From: an uncultured Pseudomonadales bacterium
GTDB lineage: Bacteria > Patescibacteriota > Microgenomatia > UBA1400 > MFAQ01
Direction: 5' to 3'
Assembly (NCBI GenBank): GCA_964429015.1
Contig: CAYSAM010000002.1
Span: 25,158-89,157 of the forward strand
Length of the DNA stretch: 64,000 bases
The notes under the pieces were generated by a model that searched no databases, was not told where the DNA came from, and saw nothing but the letters and a program-made list of their open reading frames with translations. How positions within the stretch are numbered: the stretch's first letter is position 1; every line of letters begins with the position of its first letter. The translations under genes and the position numbers were made by a program. Shown piece by piece: positions 57,319-63,892 of the stretch.

Positions 57319-58068
57319 ATGCCCCGCCAACTTTCTCCTTACGAAAAAAACTTTCTAACCAAACACCACTTTGATTTAAACTTACCGGAACTCCAAACCG
57401 AAATACCAGTAGAATATTTAGTTGGCAAAGCTGAATTTCGAGGGCTAGACTTTTTTGTCAATAACTCTACTCTAATTCCCAGAATAGAAACAGAAAAAAT
57501 AGTTGATCTTGCACTAGAAAATATTATGGAAAAATTCTCTACTCGCAACAAAATAATCATTGCTGATGTTTGTACAGGATCGGGGTGTATTGGAGTCTCA
57601 CTTGCCTTAGAACTCGTAAAGCACAACTATGACTTTCATGTCTATTTTTCTGATATTTCCCAAGAAGCACTCAAAATTGCCCAAAAAAACTTTAGTTATT
57701 TTTTACCTGACTATAAAAATTTCGCCTCATTTTTATATTCAAATCTTTTTGACAAATATCCATTGGATACAAACATAGACCTAGTTCTCTCAAACCCTCC
57801 CTACATTCCAAGCAACAGAATAAAAACACTAGATGTCTCCGTCAAAAACTATGAACCAATAACTGCCCTAGATGGCGGACAAGATGGGCTTTTATTTATC
57901 AATAAAATTATAGATGACTTGGCAAACATCCAAAACAAGGTTAACGCAATTATCGAGATAGATGAGATTCATACATTGCAAGATATAAAAAAAAGCGAGA
58001 GCTACAAACTCTCGCTTATCAAAGACACGTTCGGTGTCAATCGCTTCTTATCTCTTTTTTCTTTTTAA
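57319..58068 (+). CDS. prmC: Release-factor glutamine N5-methyltransferase (PrmC/HemK)
   Basis: SAM motif VCTGSGCIG and the NPPY motif LSNPPYIP. Confidence 0.8.
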   Translation: MPRQLSPYEKNFLTKHHFDLNLPELQTEIPVEYLVGKAEFRGLDFFVNNSTLIPRIETEKIVDLALENIMEKFSTRNKIIIADVCTGSGCIGVSLALELVKHNYDFHVYFSDISQEALKIAQKNFSYFLPDYKNFASFLYSNLFDKYPLDTNIDLVLSNPPYIPSNRIKTLDVSVKNYEPITALDGGQDGLLFINKIIDDLANIQNKVNAIIEIDEIHTLQDIKKSESYKLSLIKDTFGVNRFLSLFSF

Positions 58069-58322
58069 AACTTTTTTCTTGGCTTTTACCACTTGAGTTT
58101 TAACTTTAGCTACTTGAGCTTTACCTTTTTTAACAGCTTTTTTTACTTCACCAGCAACCATCTCTCTATTTTCTTTTTTACTAAGAAACATTCCCGCTAC
58201 TCCAGCAGCTACACCAATAACAGCAGCTCCTACGGCAGCGAACAAATTCATATTATTTTTTTTGGCAGGCATTTTTGTTTTTTTGCTTACTAACTTTTAA
58301 TAAATTCATTATGCCACAAAAA

Positions 58323-58356
58323 CAAAATCTCTGCAAAAAAAAGCCCCCTGTAAAAA
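58323..58356 (-). terminator. Rho-independent terminator of the vWA/kinase/phosphatase operon
   Basis: On the minus strand: GCCCCCTTG-TTTTTA-CAGGGGGC hairpin followed by TTTTTTTT, 25 nt after the vWA stop codon. Confidence 0.5.
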
Positions 58357-58382
58357 CAAGGGGGCGAGAAAATAAAATTAAA

Positions 58383-59207
58383 CTACGGCTGTCCAAAACC
58401 ACCAGCAGCGGCTTGTGAAAACGGCTTTGCGCCCTGACTTCCGCGAGCAGCTGTCTGAGAGAACGTACCAAAATTCAAGCGAATATCATGCTTGTTTGCG
58501 GTCGTGGTGAGAATCCATTTGTCCTGGATACCCATCCGCTTAAACACATCACGGAAGTCAGTACCATGTTTATCTTGGATACCCATAGCAGACACAATAT
58601 GTGTTTCATCTTGGAGAATCTCTGACACAATATCTTTCACACTTTCAGGGGTAGTAAACCGCCTACTGTGCTGGTCATAACCGTCAGTTACGATTAAGGT
58701 GGCAGAGCGAACAGGCTTTCCGCGATTTGAAAATTCCTGCGTCTTAGCCATAAGGTCCCCCAAGGCAACGACAGACATATCATAAAGAGGAGTTCCACCA
58801 TTAGCCTGATAGTTGCTTGCATCCAAAACTGGAACCTGAGCTATCGGGGTAAAGGGAATAACGACTGTACCATTCAAGTAACGTACGCACATAAGTACAG
58901 CATTGTTTGAATTACTTTCCATAAGCGCTTCACGAACAACATTAACCCCATCACGAATTGCTTGTTCGTTTCCAGCTTCAGCAATCGATCCAGAGTCATC
59001 AACCAGAATGGTAACCAAATAAACCTCATTTGGCCCCTTTACGTCAACTGCAGGAACGCCCATTGCCTGATTGATTTGGTTAGCGATATCAGGAATTGAA
59101 AAAACGCTAACCGCCGCTTTTGACAGCACACCATCTTCATGTGCAGAGCCAAACAAACTTTGTACATTTGCAATACCAGCAGCTTTAGAACTATTTTGTG
59201 GGTTCAT
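58383..59207 (-). CDS. vWA-domain protein (TerY-like)
   Basis: MIDAS DxSxS in VTILVDDSGSI; GGTPLYDM; TLIVTDGYD. 274 aa with a Gln/Ala/Gly-rich C-terminal tail. Confidence 0.7.
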   Translation of the reverse strand: MNPQNSSKAAGIANVQSLFGSAHEDGVLSKAAVSVFSIPDIANQINQAMGVPAVDVKGPNEVYLVTILVDDSGSIAEAGNEQAIRDGVNVVREALMESNSNNAVLMCVRYLNGTVVIPFTPIAQVPVLDASNYQANGGTPLYDMSVVALGDLMAKTQEFSNRGKPVRSATLIVTDGYDQHSRRFTTPESVKDIVSEILQDETHIVSAMGIQDKHGTDFRDVFKRMGIQDKWILTTTANKHDIRLNFGTFSQTAARGSQGAKPFSQAAAGGFGQP

Positions 59208-59234
59208 TTTTTATCTCCTTTAGACAGTACCAAC

Positions 59235-60263
59235 TTAGAACTTAATTCCCGGCCACGATTCAATCGGGTCGGTTGATTTCACGATATTCATGCCGGCTTT
59301 GGCAAAACGTTTGAATGCCGCGTCTGCAGCATCGGTGTGATCAACCACACCAGGAACGACAACAGGGCTTGTACAATCTTCCAACAAGTAAACTTTCTTA
59401 GCCAAAGTAGGATCAACAGCATTAATTTCGTCTAAGAAATCCGCAACTGTCCACGCTACACAATGACTCTTAGCTTGGCCAGCAATTGCGAGGTAGTCGT
59501 ATGCCTGTAGTTTCTTCACAAAGCCAGTGCTCTTCTGTGCAATCGCCTGTTTCATGGCAAAAAGAACTTCACCACGCAGCGCAGAATAGTTCTCAGATAA
59601 AACATTTCCACCCTTGATTTCATCTCCTGCGTCGACTTCGCGAGCCACATTATGGAAAAATACGGCTTCGTGCAAGGAAGCAACAAGTGCATGACCAATA
59701 CCACCGAGCATTGCGTGATATGGCCAAATTGTCAACTTATAACGACCGGCAGCTTCAAGTTGAGCTGTATACTCCAACAAGTAAGCTTGCAACCAAGCAT
59801 AGTTAACACCTGGAACACGACCAACAACACCAGGATTAATCATCCATTTGCCTTTTCTTACATCATCATTACTAATTTCAGTGTATGGAGCCGGGTGGTT
59901 TCCTCTTCCATCAACAATAAACATTGCATGGAAGATTTGCTGGATGTAGTGTGTGTCAAAAGTTAGTTCAATTCCGGAAATACGTCTCATCTCACGATAA
60001 ATCATTTCCGTCAAGCGTCGAATATCATCGACTGCGCCATTACCAGATCGACCACCAACAAAAAGTTCAAATCCGGGTGAACAAAAAGTGTTCTGAGCAT
60101 CAATGATCATCAAGCCAAAGCGTTTGGCATCTCGAGAAGATGGGGGGATGTTGTACTTTCTAGCCCAGTTTGGAGCATCAGTAGCCAGTTTTTCATATTT
60201 TGGTTCCCAGATCTTTCCAACGGCCTTCGGATCATAGTGAGCAGGTAAAGGTAAACTAGACAT
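59235..60263 (-). CDS. Isochorismatase/nicotinamidase-family cysteine hydrolase with a large internal insertion
   Basis: LMIIDAQNTFC (DxQxDF-C). Catalytic Cys context LAIAGQAKSHCVAWTVADF. 342 aa, whereas ~190 aa is typical. Confidence 0.55.
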   Translation of the reverse strand: MSSLPLPAHYDPKAVGKIWEPKYEKLATDAPNWARKYNIPPSSRDAKRFGLMIIDAQNTFCSPGFELFVGGRSGNGAVDDIRRLTEMIYREMRRISGIELTFDTHYIQQIFHAMFIVDGRGNHPAPYTEISNDDVRKGKWMINPGVVGRVPGVNYAWLQAYLLEYTAQLEAAGRYKLTIWPYHAMLGGIGHALVASLHEAVFFHNVAREVDAGDEIKGGNVLSENYSALRGEVLFAMKQAIAQKSTGFVKKLQAYDYLAIAGQAKSHCVAWTVADFLDEINAVDPTLAKKVYLLEDCTSPVVVPGVVDHTDAADAAFKRFAKAGMNIVKSTDPIESWPGIKF

Positions 60264-60278
60264 TTTTTTCTCCTATTT

Positions 60279-62147
60279 TTATTTTATTGTTAGACTTAGA
60301 ATTTCTTTTTTTCTTATAACCAAAACACCACTCGAACTTGGAAGTAGGAATGAGTTTTTGTCAACATATGGCTCAGTATCCGGAAACACTTTTGTCTGTG
60401 TAACTTTTCCAGATACTATCTCAGAACGAACCAACCCCTCATCAGTAGCACTCAGTATAAAATTACCAACAGGAAGTTTGCCCCTGATATTTCCCAACCA
60501 AGAGCCATCACCTTCATCAGTTTCAGCCACTGCTTCAATTTCCCCCAGTGAGTTAATTACCTGTAAACGGTTTAGCAACTTTGGACCATTTTTTTCAGTG
60601 GTCATAAACCACGCCCGCGTGCTAGTAAAAACACAGGTAGAATCAACAAGCTGACCACGTGTCGGAGTAATATTCACAGAGTCATTTATTCCAGACCTAT
60701 CAGCGTCAAATGTAAATGCCCTGGTTAGATTCCCAACACGATAGAAACCAAAACCAAAACTTTCTCCAACCCAAAACATTGTCTGGCCCTCGAGCACTGT
60801 ACCTATTGGTTCAGGTCCAACATCTTCATCTCTGTATAAGATACCTCCACTAGCCCAGTACCTGTGTCTGGAATTGGCATCAATAAGTGGTAAGTTTCCA
60901 AAACTATCAACTGGAATATTATCAATGACCTTACCACCTTCTAAAACCACCATACGCCCATCTCTCGCAAGTATTGTCTTCTTCCCCGACACACGATATC
61001 GCAACCCAGGATCAAGATCTCCTACCAGAGCTACACTTCCACCTTCTCTGATGAAGTTCCCGTCTTCATGGAAGATATATTTCAAGGTTCCATTTTGGAC
61101 AGTTGCGTATATTACTACACCCCTAGTTTGAAAAAGAAAATCAATCTTTACAGAGCCGCGAATTTGAGTTACTTTCTTTGAAGCAACACCCTTTAAACAG
61201 TTTGGGCATATAGCCCTAGCATGCTCAATACCACAGTTGGAACATTTCTCAAAATTGATATCTAGTAATCTTAGGGGGAACTCTCCTCTCCAGCCTTTTT
61301 CAAAAGTTCTTGAAAAAATTTCCAAGAGCTCATCAGGCAAAATATTAAGTTGAGGTGCGTCCTTTGGATACTTCACCGCAGAGTTAAAAACACTAATGCC
61401 TCGCAAGGGTCTTTCGTCTAGCAGAACCTTTCTCATTTTATTTTTTGCAATATAAACGCCACCATAAGGCCTCACAAACAGCAAAGCTTCCATCAACATC
61501 GCCATATATGCATACCAATCAGAGTTTCTATCATGAGGTCTAATTAGCATCATCGATTTCAGGTTTGGATCACATAGCCGAGGATCCACGTAGTTCGCTG
61601 TAAACAGCTGGCTTAGATATTTCGAATTTCCCATACTATCAGCGTCAACAATTCTGCAAACTCCTTGTTTGAGTAATACATTCAAACTATTAAAATCAGA
61701 AATTACCCCACCAGCGTCTTCATGAACTTGTTTTACTGTAGGATGCAAATCGCGAAAATATCCCAACATTGCGTTGTTTCCAATACCTCCCCTTGTACGA
61801 AACTCAGGATCGAGGTATTTAAGCATCGGCTCAAAGCCTTTAAGTTTCTCCATAGAATAGCCCAATACCTTCTTCTCGTTTGCGTCAGTCAAAAGACTAA
61901 GTGGTATAACCACCTTTGAAGGAAGTTTTGAAAAGGGAAACTCTCTAAGTTTCGTCTGATGAACAGCTATCCTTTCTCTGGCACGTTCTTGTTGAACTGG
62001 ATCCTTTGAATATGTTGGGTCATCTGGAAGTTTGTAAATTTTGGCCAGTTTCTTCGGACCAATATCATAGATATACGCCTCACCTCCTTCACTAAAAAGT
62101 ATGTCGAGGAGAATTCGCATACTACCATCATAAGCAACTCTATACAT
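60279..62147 (-). CDS. Atypical Ser/Thr protein-kinase-like protein with a central zinc ribbon and a ~300-aa C-terminal domain of unknown function
   Basis: Kinase-like subdomains: SEGGEAYIY (Gly-rich loop-like), LAKIYK (VAIK-like), ISDFNSLNVLL (HRD/catalytic-loop-like D...N), VDADSMG (DFG-like). Zinc ribbon CSNCG...CPNCL. Confidence 0.6.
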   Translation of the reverse strand: MYRVAYDGSMRILLDILFSEGGEAYIYDIGPKKLAKIYKLPDDPTYSKDPVQQERARERIAVHQTKLREFPFSKLPSKVVIPLSLLTDANEKKVLGYSMEKLKGFEPMLKYLDPEFRTRGGIGNNAMLGYFRDLHPTVKQVHEDAGGVISDFNSLNVLLKQGVCRIVDADSMGNSKYLSQLFTANYVDPRLCDPNLKSMMLIRPHDRNSDWYAYMAMLMEALLFVRPYGGVYIAKNKMRKVLLDERPLRGISVFNSAVKYPKDAPQLNILPDELLEIFSRTFEKGWRGEFPLRLLDINFEKCSNCGIEHARAICPNCLKGVASKKVTQIRGSVKIDFLFQTRGVVIYATVQNGTLKYIFHEDGNFIREGGSVALVGDLDPGLRYRVSGKKTILARDGRMVVLEGGKVIDNIPVDSFGNLPLIDANSRHRYWASGGILYRDEDVGPEPIGTVLEGQTMFWVGESFGFGFYRVGNLTRAFTFDADRSGINDSVNITPTRGQLVDSTCVFTSTRAWFMTTEKNGPKLLNRLQVINSLGEIEAVAETDEGDGSWLGNIRGKLPVGNFILSATDEGLVRSEIVSGKVTQTKVFPDTEPYVDKNSFLLPSSSGVLVIRKKEILSLTIK

Positions 62148-62156
62148 TCCGACCTC

Positions 62157-63008
62157 CTAAATTCTACTAGCCGTTACGATAGCCAAATCATCAGTTAAGA
62201 CTGGTGGGTAAATTTTTACTCGTTCATCTTTCCAGTTTATGACTCGCTTCTCACTAGCAAGCAAATTTAATCTTCCAACCAAATTACTTCGATTGTCGAA
62301 ATACGACACATTCTTCCAAAAATCTTCTGGATCTGCAATTTCAGTTGTTCCTGGCACACACTTTTTACTATCATTAAAAAACCCTTTAAGTCCATCCGTC
62401 GCCACCATTGCCGAATTTACGGTATTAGTTGAAGCAACTTTTTTAACCCTAATTTTTAAATCATCCGGAGCCATAACCTTTAGGCTTGTTTCGATCAAAT
62501 TGTACCCCAAGGCGGTAGGAAAATTATCTCTTGCGTCTGGTATCATTTCAAATTTCACGCCGTTCAAATAATAATACCCATCACCAACCCCAACGAACAG
62601 CGTAATATCTGGCGTGACTATCATACCTACAAGGGTGAACAAAAAGTAGCTCACAATATTATTGTGGTAGCTTCCACCTATTCCTCGAGCAATACTATCA
62701 ATTTCTCCCAGGGTATGCTTCTGAATATCTGCCCAAAAATTTTCATTTTGAAGGTAGAAGTTCCAGCGCCACTTAGAAATACTTTCAAGTCGGGAAACAA
62801 CATAGTTTGTTACAATTCCAACTCCAACTCTAGACCCCACTTCAGTATAAGTCTCAAAGGGAAAATTGCTATTTGAACAACCATCGGCAACAAACGACAC
62901 CATCAGATCTTTTTTTTCTTTTACTAAATACGCATCTTGGCAGTTCTTTTTTACCTTCACATGATCACCACCAATTACACTACCATGGCTATATCTCAGA
63001 GGAATCAT
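62157..63008 (-). CDS. PP2C-family Ser/Thr protein phosphatase
   Basis: QDAYL, VADGCS (metal-binding DG motif), GDGYYY and VATDGL (the C-terminal metal-binding D). Confidence 0.75.
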   Translation of the reverse strand: MIPLRYSHGSVIGGDHVKVKKNCQDAYLVKEKKDLMVSFVADGCSNSNFPFETYTEVGSRVGVGIVTNYVVSRLESISKWRWNFYLQNENFWADIQKHTLGEIDSIARGIGGSYHNNIVSYFLFTLVGMIVTPDITLFVGVGDGYYYLNGVKFEMIPDARDNFPTALGYNLIETSLKVMAPDDLKIRVKKVASTNTVNSAMVATDGLKGFFNDSKKCVPGTTEIADPEDFWKNVSYFDNRSNLVGRLNLLASEKRVINWKDERVKIYPPVLTDDLAIVTASRI

Positions 63009-63136
63009 CGTTTCTCCTTACTATATTTTATTATAAAAGTTCTAATACCCCACACTTAGTGTATTTATGACACAATTATAGCCCACTTTTCTTTATTGTC
63101 AATAGCAAGCTAACACAAGTCAGGTATACTTAACTC

Positions 63137-63892
63137 ATGTCCTGGATCTATACCATTCTTGCCTCCCTAGTAGAGGGTTTTACCGAGTTTCTCCCTATCT
63201 CCTCTACTGGTCACCTAATAGTCCTCAATCATCTTCTAAAAATCCAAGACTCCGACATAATCTCCTCTTTCAATATTTTTATTCAGCTAGGAGCCATCCT
63301 TGCAGTATTAAATCTTTACTATCAAGACCTTCTCAAAGACAAAAAAATATTACTCAATATCCTTATCTCATTTATACCGACAGCCATCATCGGTTTTACC
63401 TTATATCCACTTATAAAACGATACCTCTTAAGTAACCTACTTATTACCACAGCAAGTCTTTTTCTGGGAGGCATACTTATCTTTCTTTTACCAAAAACAA
63501 CAAAGTCAAAGGAGGTTAATCTTTTGGGATATTTTAAAATAGGTATTTTTCAGTCTCTTTCAGTTATTCCGGGTACGAGCAGAGCTCTAATGTCTATTAT
63601 TGGAGGACTATTCTCAGGCCTAAACATGGAAGAGGCTGTCAGATATTCTTTTCTATTGGCCATTCCCACCATAGGTGCAGCTACCGGCTTAGATTTAATC
63701 AAAAATAAAGAAATATTACTCCAGAATATAAATCTACTACCGTTTTTTCTTCTTGGGTTTACCCTATCATTTGTAACAGCAAAGTTAACCCTTAAATACT
63801 TTCTTGGTCTTGTCAAAAACAACTCCCTAAAGTTTTTTGGTTACTACAGAATTGCACTCGCACTCCTAATATATCTAGTACTACTGAGGTAA
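63137..63892 (+). CDS. uppP: Undecaprenyl-diphosphate phosphatase (UppP/BacA)
   Basis: LVEGFTEFLPISSTGHLIV is the canonical UppP N-terminal motif. Multi-TM. The second motif is PGTSRA. Confidence 0.85.
   Translation: MSWIYTILASLVEGFTEFLPISSTGHLIVLNHLLKIQDSDIISSFNIFIQLGAILAVLNLYYQDLLKDKKILLNILISFIPTAIIGFTLYPLIKRYLLSNLLITTASLFLGGILIFLLPKTTKSKEVNLLGYFKIGIFQSLSVIPGTSRALMSIIGGLFSGLNMEEAVRYSFLLAIPTIGAATGLDLIKNKEILLQNINLLPFFLLGFTLSFVTAKLTLKYFLGLVKNNSLKFFGYYRIALALLIYLVLLR

Follow-up and report, generated by a model that had tools for sequence, protein, structure and literature searches.

A Kinase, Phosphatase and vWA Operon with an Embedded Nicotinamidase-Like Gene Looks Like a Signal-Gated NAD-Salvage Unit

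We analyzed a 64,000-nt stretch of DNA (hereafter, the window) from contig CAYSAM010000002.1 of assembly GCA_964429015.1, an uncultured bacterium placed in the Patescibacteriota, which carries an operon of four genes for a PP2C phosphatase, a Ser/Thr kinase, a PncA-type hydrolase and a von Willebrand factor A (vWA) protein. A prediction made from the sequence alone had described this operon as resembling the TerY-P triad, with a nicotinamidase-like gene inserted into it, and had connected it with abortive infection. Our analyses indicated that the module is a triad of the TerY-P/YegI type combined with an NrtR-regulated pncA salvage operon, and that it is widespread and uncharacterized. The operon looks like an undescribed signal-gated unit for the salvage of nicotinamide adenine dinucleotide (NAD) rather than a phage-defense cassette.

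Operon Structure and a Putative NrtR-Type Operator

The four genes lie on the minus strand and are read in the order PP2C_2 phosphatase (62157-63008, 283 aa), kinase with a zinc ribbon and beta-propeller (60279-62147, 622 aa), predicted PncA-type nicotinamidase (59235-60263, 342 aa) and vWA protein with a metal ion-dependent adhesion site (MIDAS; 58383-59207, 274 aa). They are separated by only 9, 15 and 27 nt, and the coordinates and tightly spaced, co-directional arrangement were exactly as originally predicted. Upstream is a sigma-70 promoter (63075-63102, minus strand) whose TTGACA and TATAAT boxes, separated by a 16-nt spacer, matched the consensus at 12/12 positions; it was the sole perfect sigma-70 site in the 5.4 kb that were scanned (57900-63300). 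A ribosome-binding site, AAGGAG (63014-63019, minus strand), was identified from the sequence 5 nt before the ATG of the PP2C gene. The clean rho-independent terminator that had been predicted after the last gene was also found (58335-58363, minus strand), with a GC-rich 8-bp stem containing 5 GC pairs, a 4-nt loop (hairpin 58363-58344) and a T8 run. Based on the upstream promoter, the short gaps and the terminator, the four genes form one transcription unit. The flanks of the operon in the window are housekeeping genes, those for BacA, a HemK-like methyltransferase, a beta-CASP RNase and SufBC.

One nucleotide downstream of the -10 box is the sequence GTGT-N7-ACAC (63059-63073, minus strand; extended operator 63053-63076), which had one match in the whole window, with 0.39 expected. 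The regions upstream of the PP2C gene in related loci share the palindrome TAGTGTA-N5-TACACTA, which is often doubled and either overlaps or follows a TTGACA...TATAAT promoter. According to Rodionov et al. 2008 (PMC2330246), NrtR sites are 21-bp palindromes with a GT-N7-AC core that overlap promoters or sit immediately downstream of them, and ADP-ribose releases NrtR from these sites. We infer that the site at 63059-63073 is a putative NrtR-type operator at the operon promoter, which would be responsive to ADP-ribose.

Recurrence of the Module and Its Linkage to NAD-Salvage Genes

The gene neighborhoods of 87 loci were surveyed, 80 of which had been retrieved via the hydrolase and the rest via exact protein look-ups. 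Triad genes were beside the hydrolase gene in 27/87 loci, mostly in the window order of PP2C-kinase-hydrolase-vWA, and these module loci were from Cyanobacteria, Patescibacteria, one Actinomycetota metagenome-assembled genome, Entotheonellaceae and others. In the remaining 60 loci the hydrolase gene was either alone or, in 18 of them, beside a QRPTase/NAPRTase-family gene. A neighbor-joining tree placed the module-linked hydrolases in one large clade, apart from the clade linked to QRPTase-like genes. When loci were retrieved via the kinase, the hydrolase gene adjoined the kinase gene in 3/3 cellular loci on long contigs, all with the four-gene arrangement, and in 13/13 viral loci from IMG/VR. 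Chance adjacency of the four genes was rejected, as the arrangement, including the inserted PncA-like gene, recurs in many phyla.

The module loci were also linked to genes for NAD metabolism and its regulation. The gene nrtR (NUDIX + WHD_NrtR domains) adjoined the module, either divergently (as in the cyanobacterial loci L001 and L084) or co-directionally, in 11/27 module loci and in 0/60 solo-hydrolase loci. In the 400 bp upstream of the module's first gene, GTGT-N7-ACAC was present in 17/27 module loci versus 3/60 of the others. In related loci the operator motif falls between nrtR and the PP2C gene. The order in locus L087 was nrtR-PP2C-kinase-hydrolase-vWA-NAPRTase (PF04095)-His_Phos_1-glutamine-dependent NAD synthase, and in L020 and L033 the vWA gene had a bona fide NAPRTase gene downstream of it within the locus. 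Genes for nicotinate phosphoribosyltransferase (NAPRTase) and NAD synthase often come after the module. Such linkage to nrtR, pncB and nadE bears out the part of the original prediction that tied the operon to turnover of NAD+ and nicotinamide; it does not bear out the part concerning abortive infection, since the context points to salvage and not to depletion. The His_Phos_1 gene between the NAPRTase and NAD synthase genes of L087 (12440-13246) may encode a further phosphatase of the NAD pathway.

Published NrtR regulons include pncA-pncB, a pairing that is the classical arrangement (Table 1, PMC2330246), and contain no kinase, phosphatase or vWA gene. Like the NrtR-regulated pncA-pncB operons of salvage pathway I, the window operon has a nicotinamidase-type gene and a GT-N7-AC operator overlapping its promoter, and its relatives have nrtR adjacent and pncB and nadE downstream. 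It differs from these published operons in that the predicted nicotinamidase is long, bears an insertion and is flanked by the kinase, phosphatase and vWA genes (PMC2330246). Our searches of the full-text literature found nothing relevant that joined a nicotinamidase or isochorismatase with vWA, PP2C or NrtR.

Three loci contained decayed variants of the module. In L046 (3404-5388) and L060 (7983-10864) the hydrolase and vWA genes were present with no kinase or PP2C gene within the sequenced stretch; both variants keep NrtR-type operators upstream, and in L060 a Uma2-family gene lies between the pair. In L038 there were only the PP2C and hydrolase genes, beside a group II intron reverse transcriptase. 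In addition, a KSB1 locus (L002, 9032-10336) contained a 434-aa open reading frame (ORF) without a Pfam match between a solo hydrolase gene and a QRPTase-family gene, which may represent another unrecognized partner in nicotinamide salvage.

The Hydrolase Is a Predicted PncA-Type Nicotinamidase

Profile comparison and conserved motifs identified the hydrolase as a member of the isochorismatase/PncA family, as originally predicted. Its family profile aligned with E. coli PncA at an hhalign probability of 95.2% (E-value 2.7e-8). The catalytic Asp-Lys-Cys triad (D55, K217 and C268) was invariant in 27 sequences of 55-72% identity and corresponds by motif to D10, K111 and C156 of E. coli PncA. Invariant in the same 27 sequences were D103-x-H105, H112 and W180-P-x-H183, which correspond to the metal-site motifs D52-W-H54, H58 and W83-P-D-H86 of the E. 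coli enzyme. We take the D-x-H, H and WPxH motifs to be the PncA metal site that separates nicotinamidases from other amidases of the isochorismatase fold. The motif KGxNxxxxxYS and the cysteine motif GQAKSHC also aligned with E. coli PncA. More than 8000 relatives were found at 55-72% identity, several of which were named isochorismatase or nicotinamidase-related amidase in their source. Together, these data suggest that the hydrolase is a PncA-type nicotinamidase of the isochorismatase superfamily, with nicotinamide as its probable substrate.

A point against this assignment is that the window protein itself had no Pfam match, so that its family membership was based on the profile comparison and the motifs. 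Its match to the NCBIfam PncA model (E-value 0.0026) was far below the model cut-off, searches of PDB sequences with the single sequence and with the profile returned nothing useful, and the Pfam Isochorismatase model matched 11/27 relatives (best E-value 3.5e-4). Relative to E. coli PncA, the protein has an N-terminal extension of 45 residues and, as placed by the spacing of the motifs, an insertion of ~46 residues between positions ~113 and 175; the insertion had originally been placed at residues 60-190, which is too wide.

These features raise the alternative that the enzyme is an amidase of the same superfamily acting on another substrate processed by the module, such as a nicotinamide mononucleotide-like or nicotinamide riboside-like compound or a modified protein side chain. 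The extension and insertion set the protein apart from characterized PncA enzymes, the Pfam and PDB sequence matches are weak, and the identity of 55-60% across phyla is unusually high, a hint of additional constraints. Against this, the metal-site motifs are all invariant, the two further motifs align with E. coli PncA, and genes of the NAPRTase family repeatedly occur as its partners, in the classical pncA-pncB arrangement (PMC2330246). We consider another substrate to be very unlikely.

Some hydrolases of otherwise normal modules had 582 aa, with a 241-residue N-terminal domain fused to the nicotinamidase (L003, 8001-8723; proteins P0023, P0027, P0035, P0087 and P0093). This domain had no Pfam match and does not represent a fusion between module proteins. 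T106 and T212 of the hydrolase family were considered as phospho-acceptors, as they are clade-specific, and were rejected because the window hydrolase has Y and A at these positions.

The Kinase, Phosphatase and vWA Proteins

The kinase protein consists of three parts, which were apparent in an AlphaFold2 model built from 35 homologues with a pLDDT score of 90.5. The first (residues 1-~290; 61278-62147, minus strand) is a eukaryotic-type Ser/Thr kinase domain of the YegI family, as indicated by Foldseek, hhalign and invariant residues. The Pfam Pkinase match was weak (E-value 0.018). Foldseek matched this part to the Ser/Thr kinases AAK1, CaMKII, Akt1 and Aurora B, and hhalign aligned the kinase and ribbon region with E. 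coli YegI at a probability of 98.3% (E-value 1.7e-14), with the alignment running through the ribbon. In the glycine loop, G19 and G22 were present in at least 90% of the sequences, and the remaining residues of G19-G22, E23 and A24 in all; K36, D151-F-N-x-L-N156 and D168-x-D170 were invariant. YegI is an experimentally demonstrated Ser/Thr protein kinase with unknown substrates (bioRxiv 10.1101/819920). The idea that the window protein is a small-molecule kinase was rejected based on this homology and on its best structural matches being protein kinases.

The second part is a four-cysteine zinc ribbon (residues ~296-320; 61188-61262, minus strand), in which C302, C305, C314 and C317 were invariant in the 35 sequences and whose profile matched Nop10 zinc ribbons (E-value 0.0065). 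A kinase-like protein with such a ribbon had been predicted, and both elements were thus confirmed. The third part (residues 327-622, followed by the stop codon; 60279-61169, minus strand) had been noted as an uncharacterized C-terminal domain of about 300 residues. The domain is present, and structure prediction now assigns it as a cytoplasmic seven-bladed beta-propeller with 29 beta-strands in the AlphaFold2 secondary structure. Foldseek matched it to the clathrin N-terminal domain, the BPB propeller of DDB1 and WD40 propellers, and LRRK2 was a match that spanned both the kinase and propeller domains. The kinase family comprised 830 representatives at 50% identity (E-value ≤1e-30), and the three-domain architecture is fixed, as the best 150 representatives covered the full 622-position profile, apart from a few shorter entries. 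One long kinase (P0486, 808 aa) had an extra part that by eye was a low-complexity tail, and not a fusion between module proteins.

The phosphatase matched Pfam PP2C_2 (PF13672) with an E-value of 8e-13, and its family profile matched E. coli PphC (YegK) at an hhalign probability of 96% (E-value 3e-9). The Asp motifs for metal binding and catalysis (D25, D42-G, D143-G, D205-G and D273-D274) were invariant in 18 orthologues. These matches support the earlier PP2C assignment and indicate that the protein is a PP2C_2-family Ser/Thr phosphatase homologous to PphC.

The vWA protein could be assigned by its predicted structure. Searches with the protein and with its family profile gave no Pfam, NCBIfam or PDB-sequence match, and all 277 of its relatives are named "hypothetical". 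Its AlphaFold2 model (pLDDT 92.7) matched integrin I and von Willebrand factor A domains in Foldseek at a probability of 1.0, with E-values down to 5e-7, and the MIDAS residues D70, S72, S74, T139 and D175 were invariant in 34 sequences. As modeled, the protein has a vWA fold with a complete MIDAS, in agreement with the original prediction, and belongs to an unannotated family. Its similarity to E. coli YegL was marginal (hhalign probability 17.7%, E-value 1.4e-3, over the T..D stretch), and by sequence it is not detectably of the TerY/YegL type. Profile and structure comparisons thus placed all four proteins in the predicted folds.

The Module on Viral Contigs and in Huge Phages

The kinase profile, when run against IMG/VR, identified 13 loci (L089-L101); their contigs measure 42-545 kb (>80 kb in every case except one) and have GC contents of 0.33 to 0.68. 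These contigs are taken as viral from their listing in IMG/VR, and not from capsid or terminase genes. In 13/13 loci the kinase, hydrolase and vWA genes were present, and the PP2C gene was found in all but one, which was cut by the end of the contig. Several of the loci also have NAPRTase and NAD synthase genes. The flanks were poor in Pfam matches, those found being PIF1, Prim-Pol, RNA ligase, DUF5131, HNH and RNase H, and among the best 25 of 36 flank families there were no ribosomal proteins or typical cellular housekeeping proteins, with the exception of one Rpb6-family match. A protein flanking one of these loci matched the major vault protein domains MVP_shoulder (E-value 4e-29) and Vault_3 (E-value 1e-10), which is unusual on a phage-like contig.

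Deposited genomes of huge phages contained divergent copies of the module with a different gene order. LR745208.1 (L104) has hydrolase, vWA, PP2C_2 and kinase genes, and LR756511.1 (L103) has the hydrolase and a vWA gene. In LR756500.1 (L105; 73.8-77.8 kb region) the order was Isochorismatase, a 231-aa ORF, PP2C_2 and Pkinase; the hydrolase passed the Pfam Isochorismatase gathering score, and the 231-aa ORF, which itself matched nothing in Pfam or by tblastn, is at the position occupied by the vWA gene in L104.

Phage gene sets that rebuild NAD have been described as NARP1-3 (bioRxiv 10.1101/2024.02.11.579819; PMC13464706), and the module in huge phages, where it adjoins NAPRTase and NAD synthase genes, may be comparable to them. 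NARP1 consists of Adps and Namat, NARP2 of Nampt and Nmnat, and NARP3 of PnuC and a NadR-like enzyme. A nicotinamidase is absent from all three, as is a kinase, phosphatase and vWA set. The enzyme families that define NARP1-3 were not found in Pfam/NCBIfam scans of the four operon proteins. The searchable literature on phages and NAD, covering NARP1-3 (PMC13464706), a survey of viral NAD-ADPr genes (PMC9503650) and the NAD genes of jumbo phages (PMC11662467), contained no nicotinamidase-based pathway and no association with kinase, PP2C or vWA genes.

Comparison with the TerY-P Triad and the Question of Defense

The TerY-P triad was reportedly described by Anantharaman, Iyer and Aravind in 2012, and we take the E. 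coli set yegI-pphC(yegK)-yegL, which encodes a kinase, a PP2C phosphatase and a vWA protein, to be equivalent to it. The E. coli set and the window operon share a Ser/Thr kinase with a cysteine ribbon C-terminal to it, a PP2C_2 phosphatase and a vWA/MIDAS protein. They differ in that the window operon has a nicotinamidase-type gene within the set, another gene order and an NrtR-type operator at the promoter. In addition, YegI has a double-pass membrane anchor (bioRxiv 10.1101/819920), whereas the kinase described here has a soluble propeller, and the vWA protein, unlike YegL, is without a Pfam VWA match.

In PMC11090510, TerY-P is defined as a TerY-like vWA protein, a PP2C-like enzyme and a Ser/Thr kinase that has a zinc ribbon joined to its C-terminus. 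The PP2C-like enzyme and the fusion of kinase and zinc ribbon were both found here, and the contiguous three-gene cassette was not, as the nicotinamidase gene lies between the kinase and vWA genes in the window and in 27 related loci. The description "TerY-P-like" is fair, because the kinase and PP2C proteins are homologous to YegI and PphC and the ribbon fusion is present. The predicted resemblance held, with a vWA protein that has the fold and a complete MIDAS but whose sequence is not detectably TerY-type. Strict membership fails because of the interrupted cassette, the lack of detectable TerY/YegL-type sequence in the vWA protein, the soluble propeller and the lack of a PADLOC match.

The resemblance makes it necessary to consider that the operon is a stand-alone anti-phage system of the TerY-P type, in which the nicotinamidase would be an effector that destroys nicotinamide or serves abortive infection. 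Phage protection is reported for versions of TerY-P (Gao et al. 2020, cited in PMC11090510), and these share with the window operon the cassette of vWA, PP2C and kinase genes. Regulators of the NrtR type that sense ADP-ribose also control conflict systems (PMC9503650). NARP1 and NARP2 need nicotinamide, so its destruction would block the reconstitution of NAD by phages. A further point for defense, and against NAD salvage, is a cyanobacterial locus (L001, 799-4040) in which a complete NsnABC system adjoins the nrtR gene of the module (PADLOC E-values 1e-108 to 1e-135); its genes were assigned from Pfam annotations (GmrSD_N and AAA_15 proteins), and the correspondence is a probable one. PADLOC matches among 83 neighbor proteins of related loci were otherwise scattered, including Cas4/PD-DExK, AriA-like and reverse transcriptase matches, with no baseline for comparison, and a NACHT gene was found in L084.

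Other evidence argued against the defense reading. The four operon proteins had zero matches in PADLOC-DB 2.0.0 at E ≤1. That library presumably contains TerY-P models. The kinase of the antiphage TerY-P systems is fused to an OB fold in the account given in PMC11090510, whereas the kinase described here has a zinc ribbon and propeller, and its module is in a context of NAD salvage and is also carried by phages. The flanks in the window are the housekeeping genes named above. The hydrolase family is widespread and usually solo. In other loci NAPRTase and NAD synthase, which use the product of a nicotinamidase to regenerate NAD, share an operon with the module. Its presence in huge phages is difficult to reconcile with a role as anti-phage effector and favors the rebuilding of NAD over its destruction. 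Together, the linkage to pncB and nadE and the carriage by phages make defense less likely; we regard it as quite unlikely, and the defense framing of the original prediction was set aside.

A Proposed Role in Phosphorylation-Gated Nicotinamide Salvage

The reading that we favor, with moderate confidence, is that the operon is an NrtR-controlled unit for nicotinamide salvage in which the nicotinamidase is gated by a phospho-switch. Consumption of NAD would lead to a build-up of ADP-ribose, and NrtR would then leave the operator that overlaps the promoter, allowing the four genes to be transcribed from the consensus promoter. By converting nicotinamide to nicotinate, the nicotinamidase would carry out the initial step of the Preiss-Handler pathway, and the nicotinate would pass to NAPRTase and NAD synthase encoded elsewhere in the genome. 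The kinase, with its propeller as a possible docking or sensing surface, and the phosphatase may set the phosphorylation of a component of the module. The vWA protein may read or relay this phosphorylation via its metal site, tuning the activity or the assembly of the enzyme. The persistence of hydrolase and vWA pairs without kinase or PP2C genes points to the vWA protein as the hydrolase's direct partner.

Several observations weigh against this reading. The hydrolase gene was without triad genes nearby in 60/87 loci, so the triad is evidently not needed for catalysis by the hydrolase. No phospho-acceptor residue specific to the module-linked hydrolases stood out, which, together with the many homologues lacking a triad, weakens the case for a gate. 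The window operator has the extended right half-site TACACTA, and its left half-site fits the consensus at 5/7 positions. There is no nrtR, pncB or nadE gene within the window, which leaves regulation by NrtR and completion of the pathway in this organism as predictions.

The first two of these points are also what would be expected if the triad and the nicotinamidase were merely co-transcribed, with NrtR co-regulating two functions and the triad signaling to unrelated targets. The substrates of YegI are unknown (bioRxiv 10.1101/819920), and unrelated targets are still possible for YegI, PphC and YegL. Against this, the linkage is kept in Cyanobacteria, Patescibacteria, Actinomycetota, Entotheonellaceae and phages even where the genes are ordered differently (e.g., hydrolase-vWA-PP2C-kinase in LR756500.1), the hydrolase gene was beside every member of the kinase family retrieved through the kinase, and the hydrolase and vWA pairs have outlasted the loss of kinase and PP2C. 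Linkage this persistent normally reflects a physical or functional interaction. We consider mere co-transcription to be unlikely. That the linkage has outlasted rearrangements of the genes and extends to several phyla and to phages supports the phospho-gate.

More tentatively, we speculate that the module is a phosphorylation-gated system for the recovery of NAD+ that is common to bacteria and huge phages. In cells it would be induced via NrtR when NAD is broken down, including by immune effectors. In huge phages, the four genes with NAPRTase and NAD synthase could form a fourth, Preiss-Handler-type pathway of NAD reconstitution that counters NAD-depletion immunity. This extension is possible but doubtful at present.

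Triads of vWA, PP2C and Ser/Thr kinase genes are widespread, and we know of none with an identified client. If the proposed role is correct, the operon would be the first case of Ser/Thr phospho-signaling that directly controls a bacterial NAD-salvage enzyme, and would provide a concrete client for the orphan triads of the YegI/PphC/YegL type. Because the triad is locked to one simply assayed enzyme and the signal of the regulon is known (ADP-ribose), its function is directly testable. A real link would add a post-translational layer to bacterial NAD homeostasis and would be most relevant for Patescibacteria and cyanobacteria, in which salvage may play an important part. With the module being beside NAPRTase and NAD synthase genes in huge phages, it would also be a candidate pathway in the contest between host and phage over NAD.

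Other Features of the Window

Just past the operon terminator is a separate 74-aa ORF (58048-58272, minus strand) whose product combines a single hydrophobic segment with a tail rich in lysine. A promoter-like site (58337-58308) and a strong terminator with an 11-bp stem (58017-57993) belong to this ORF.

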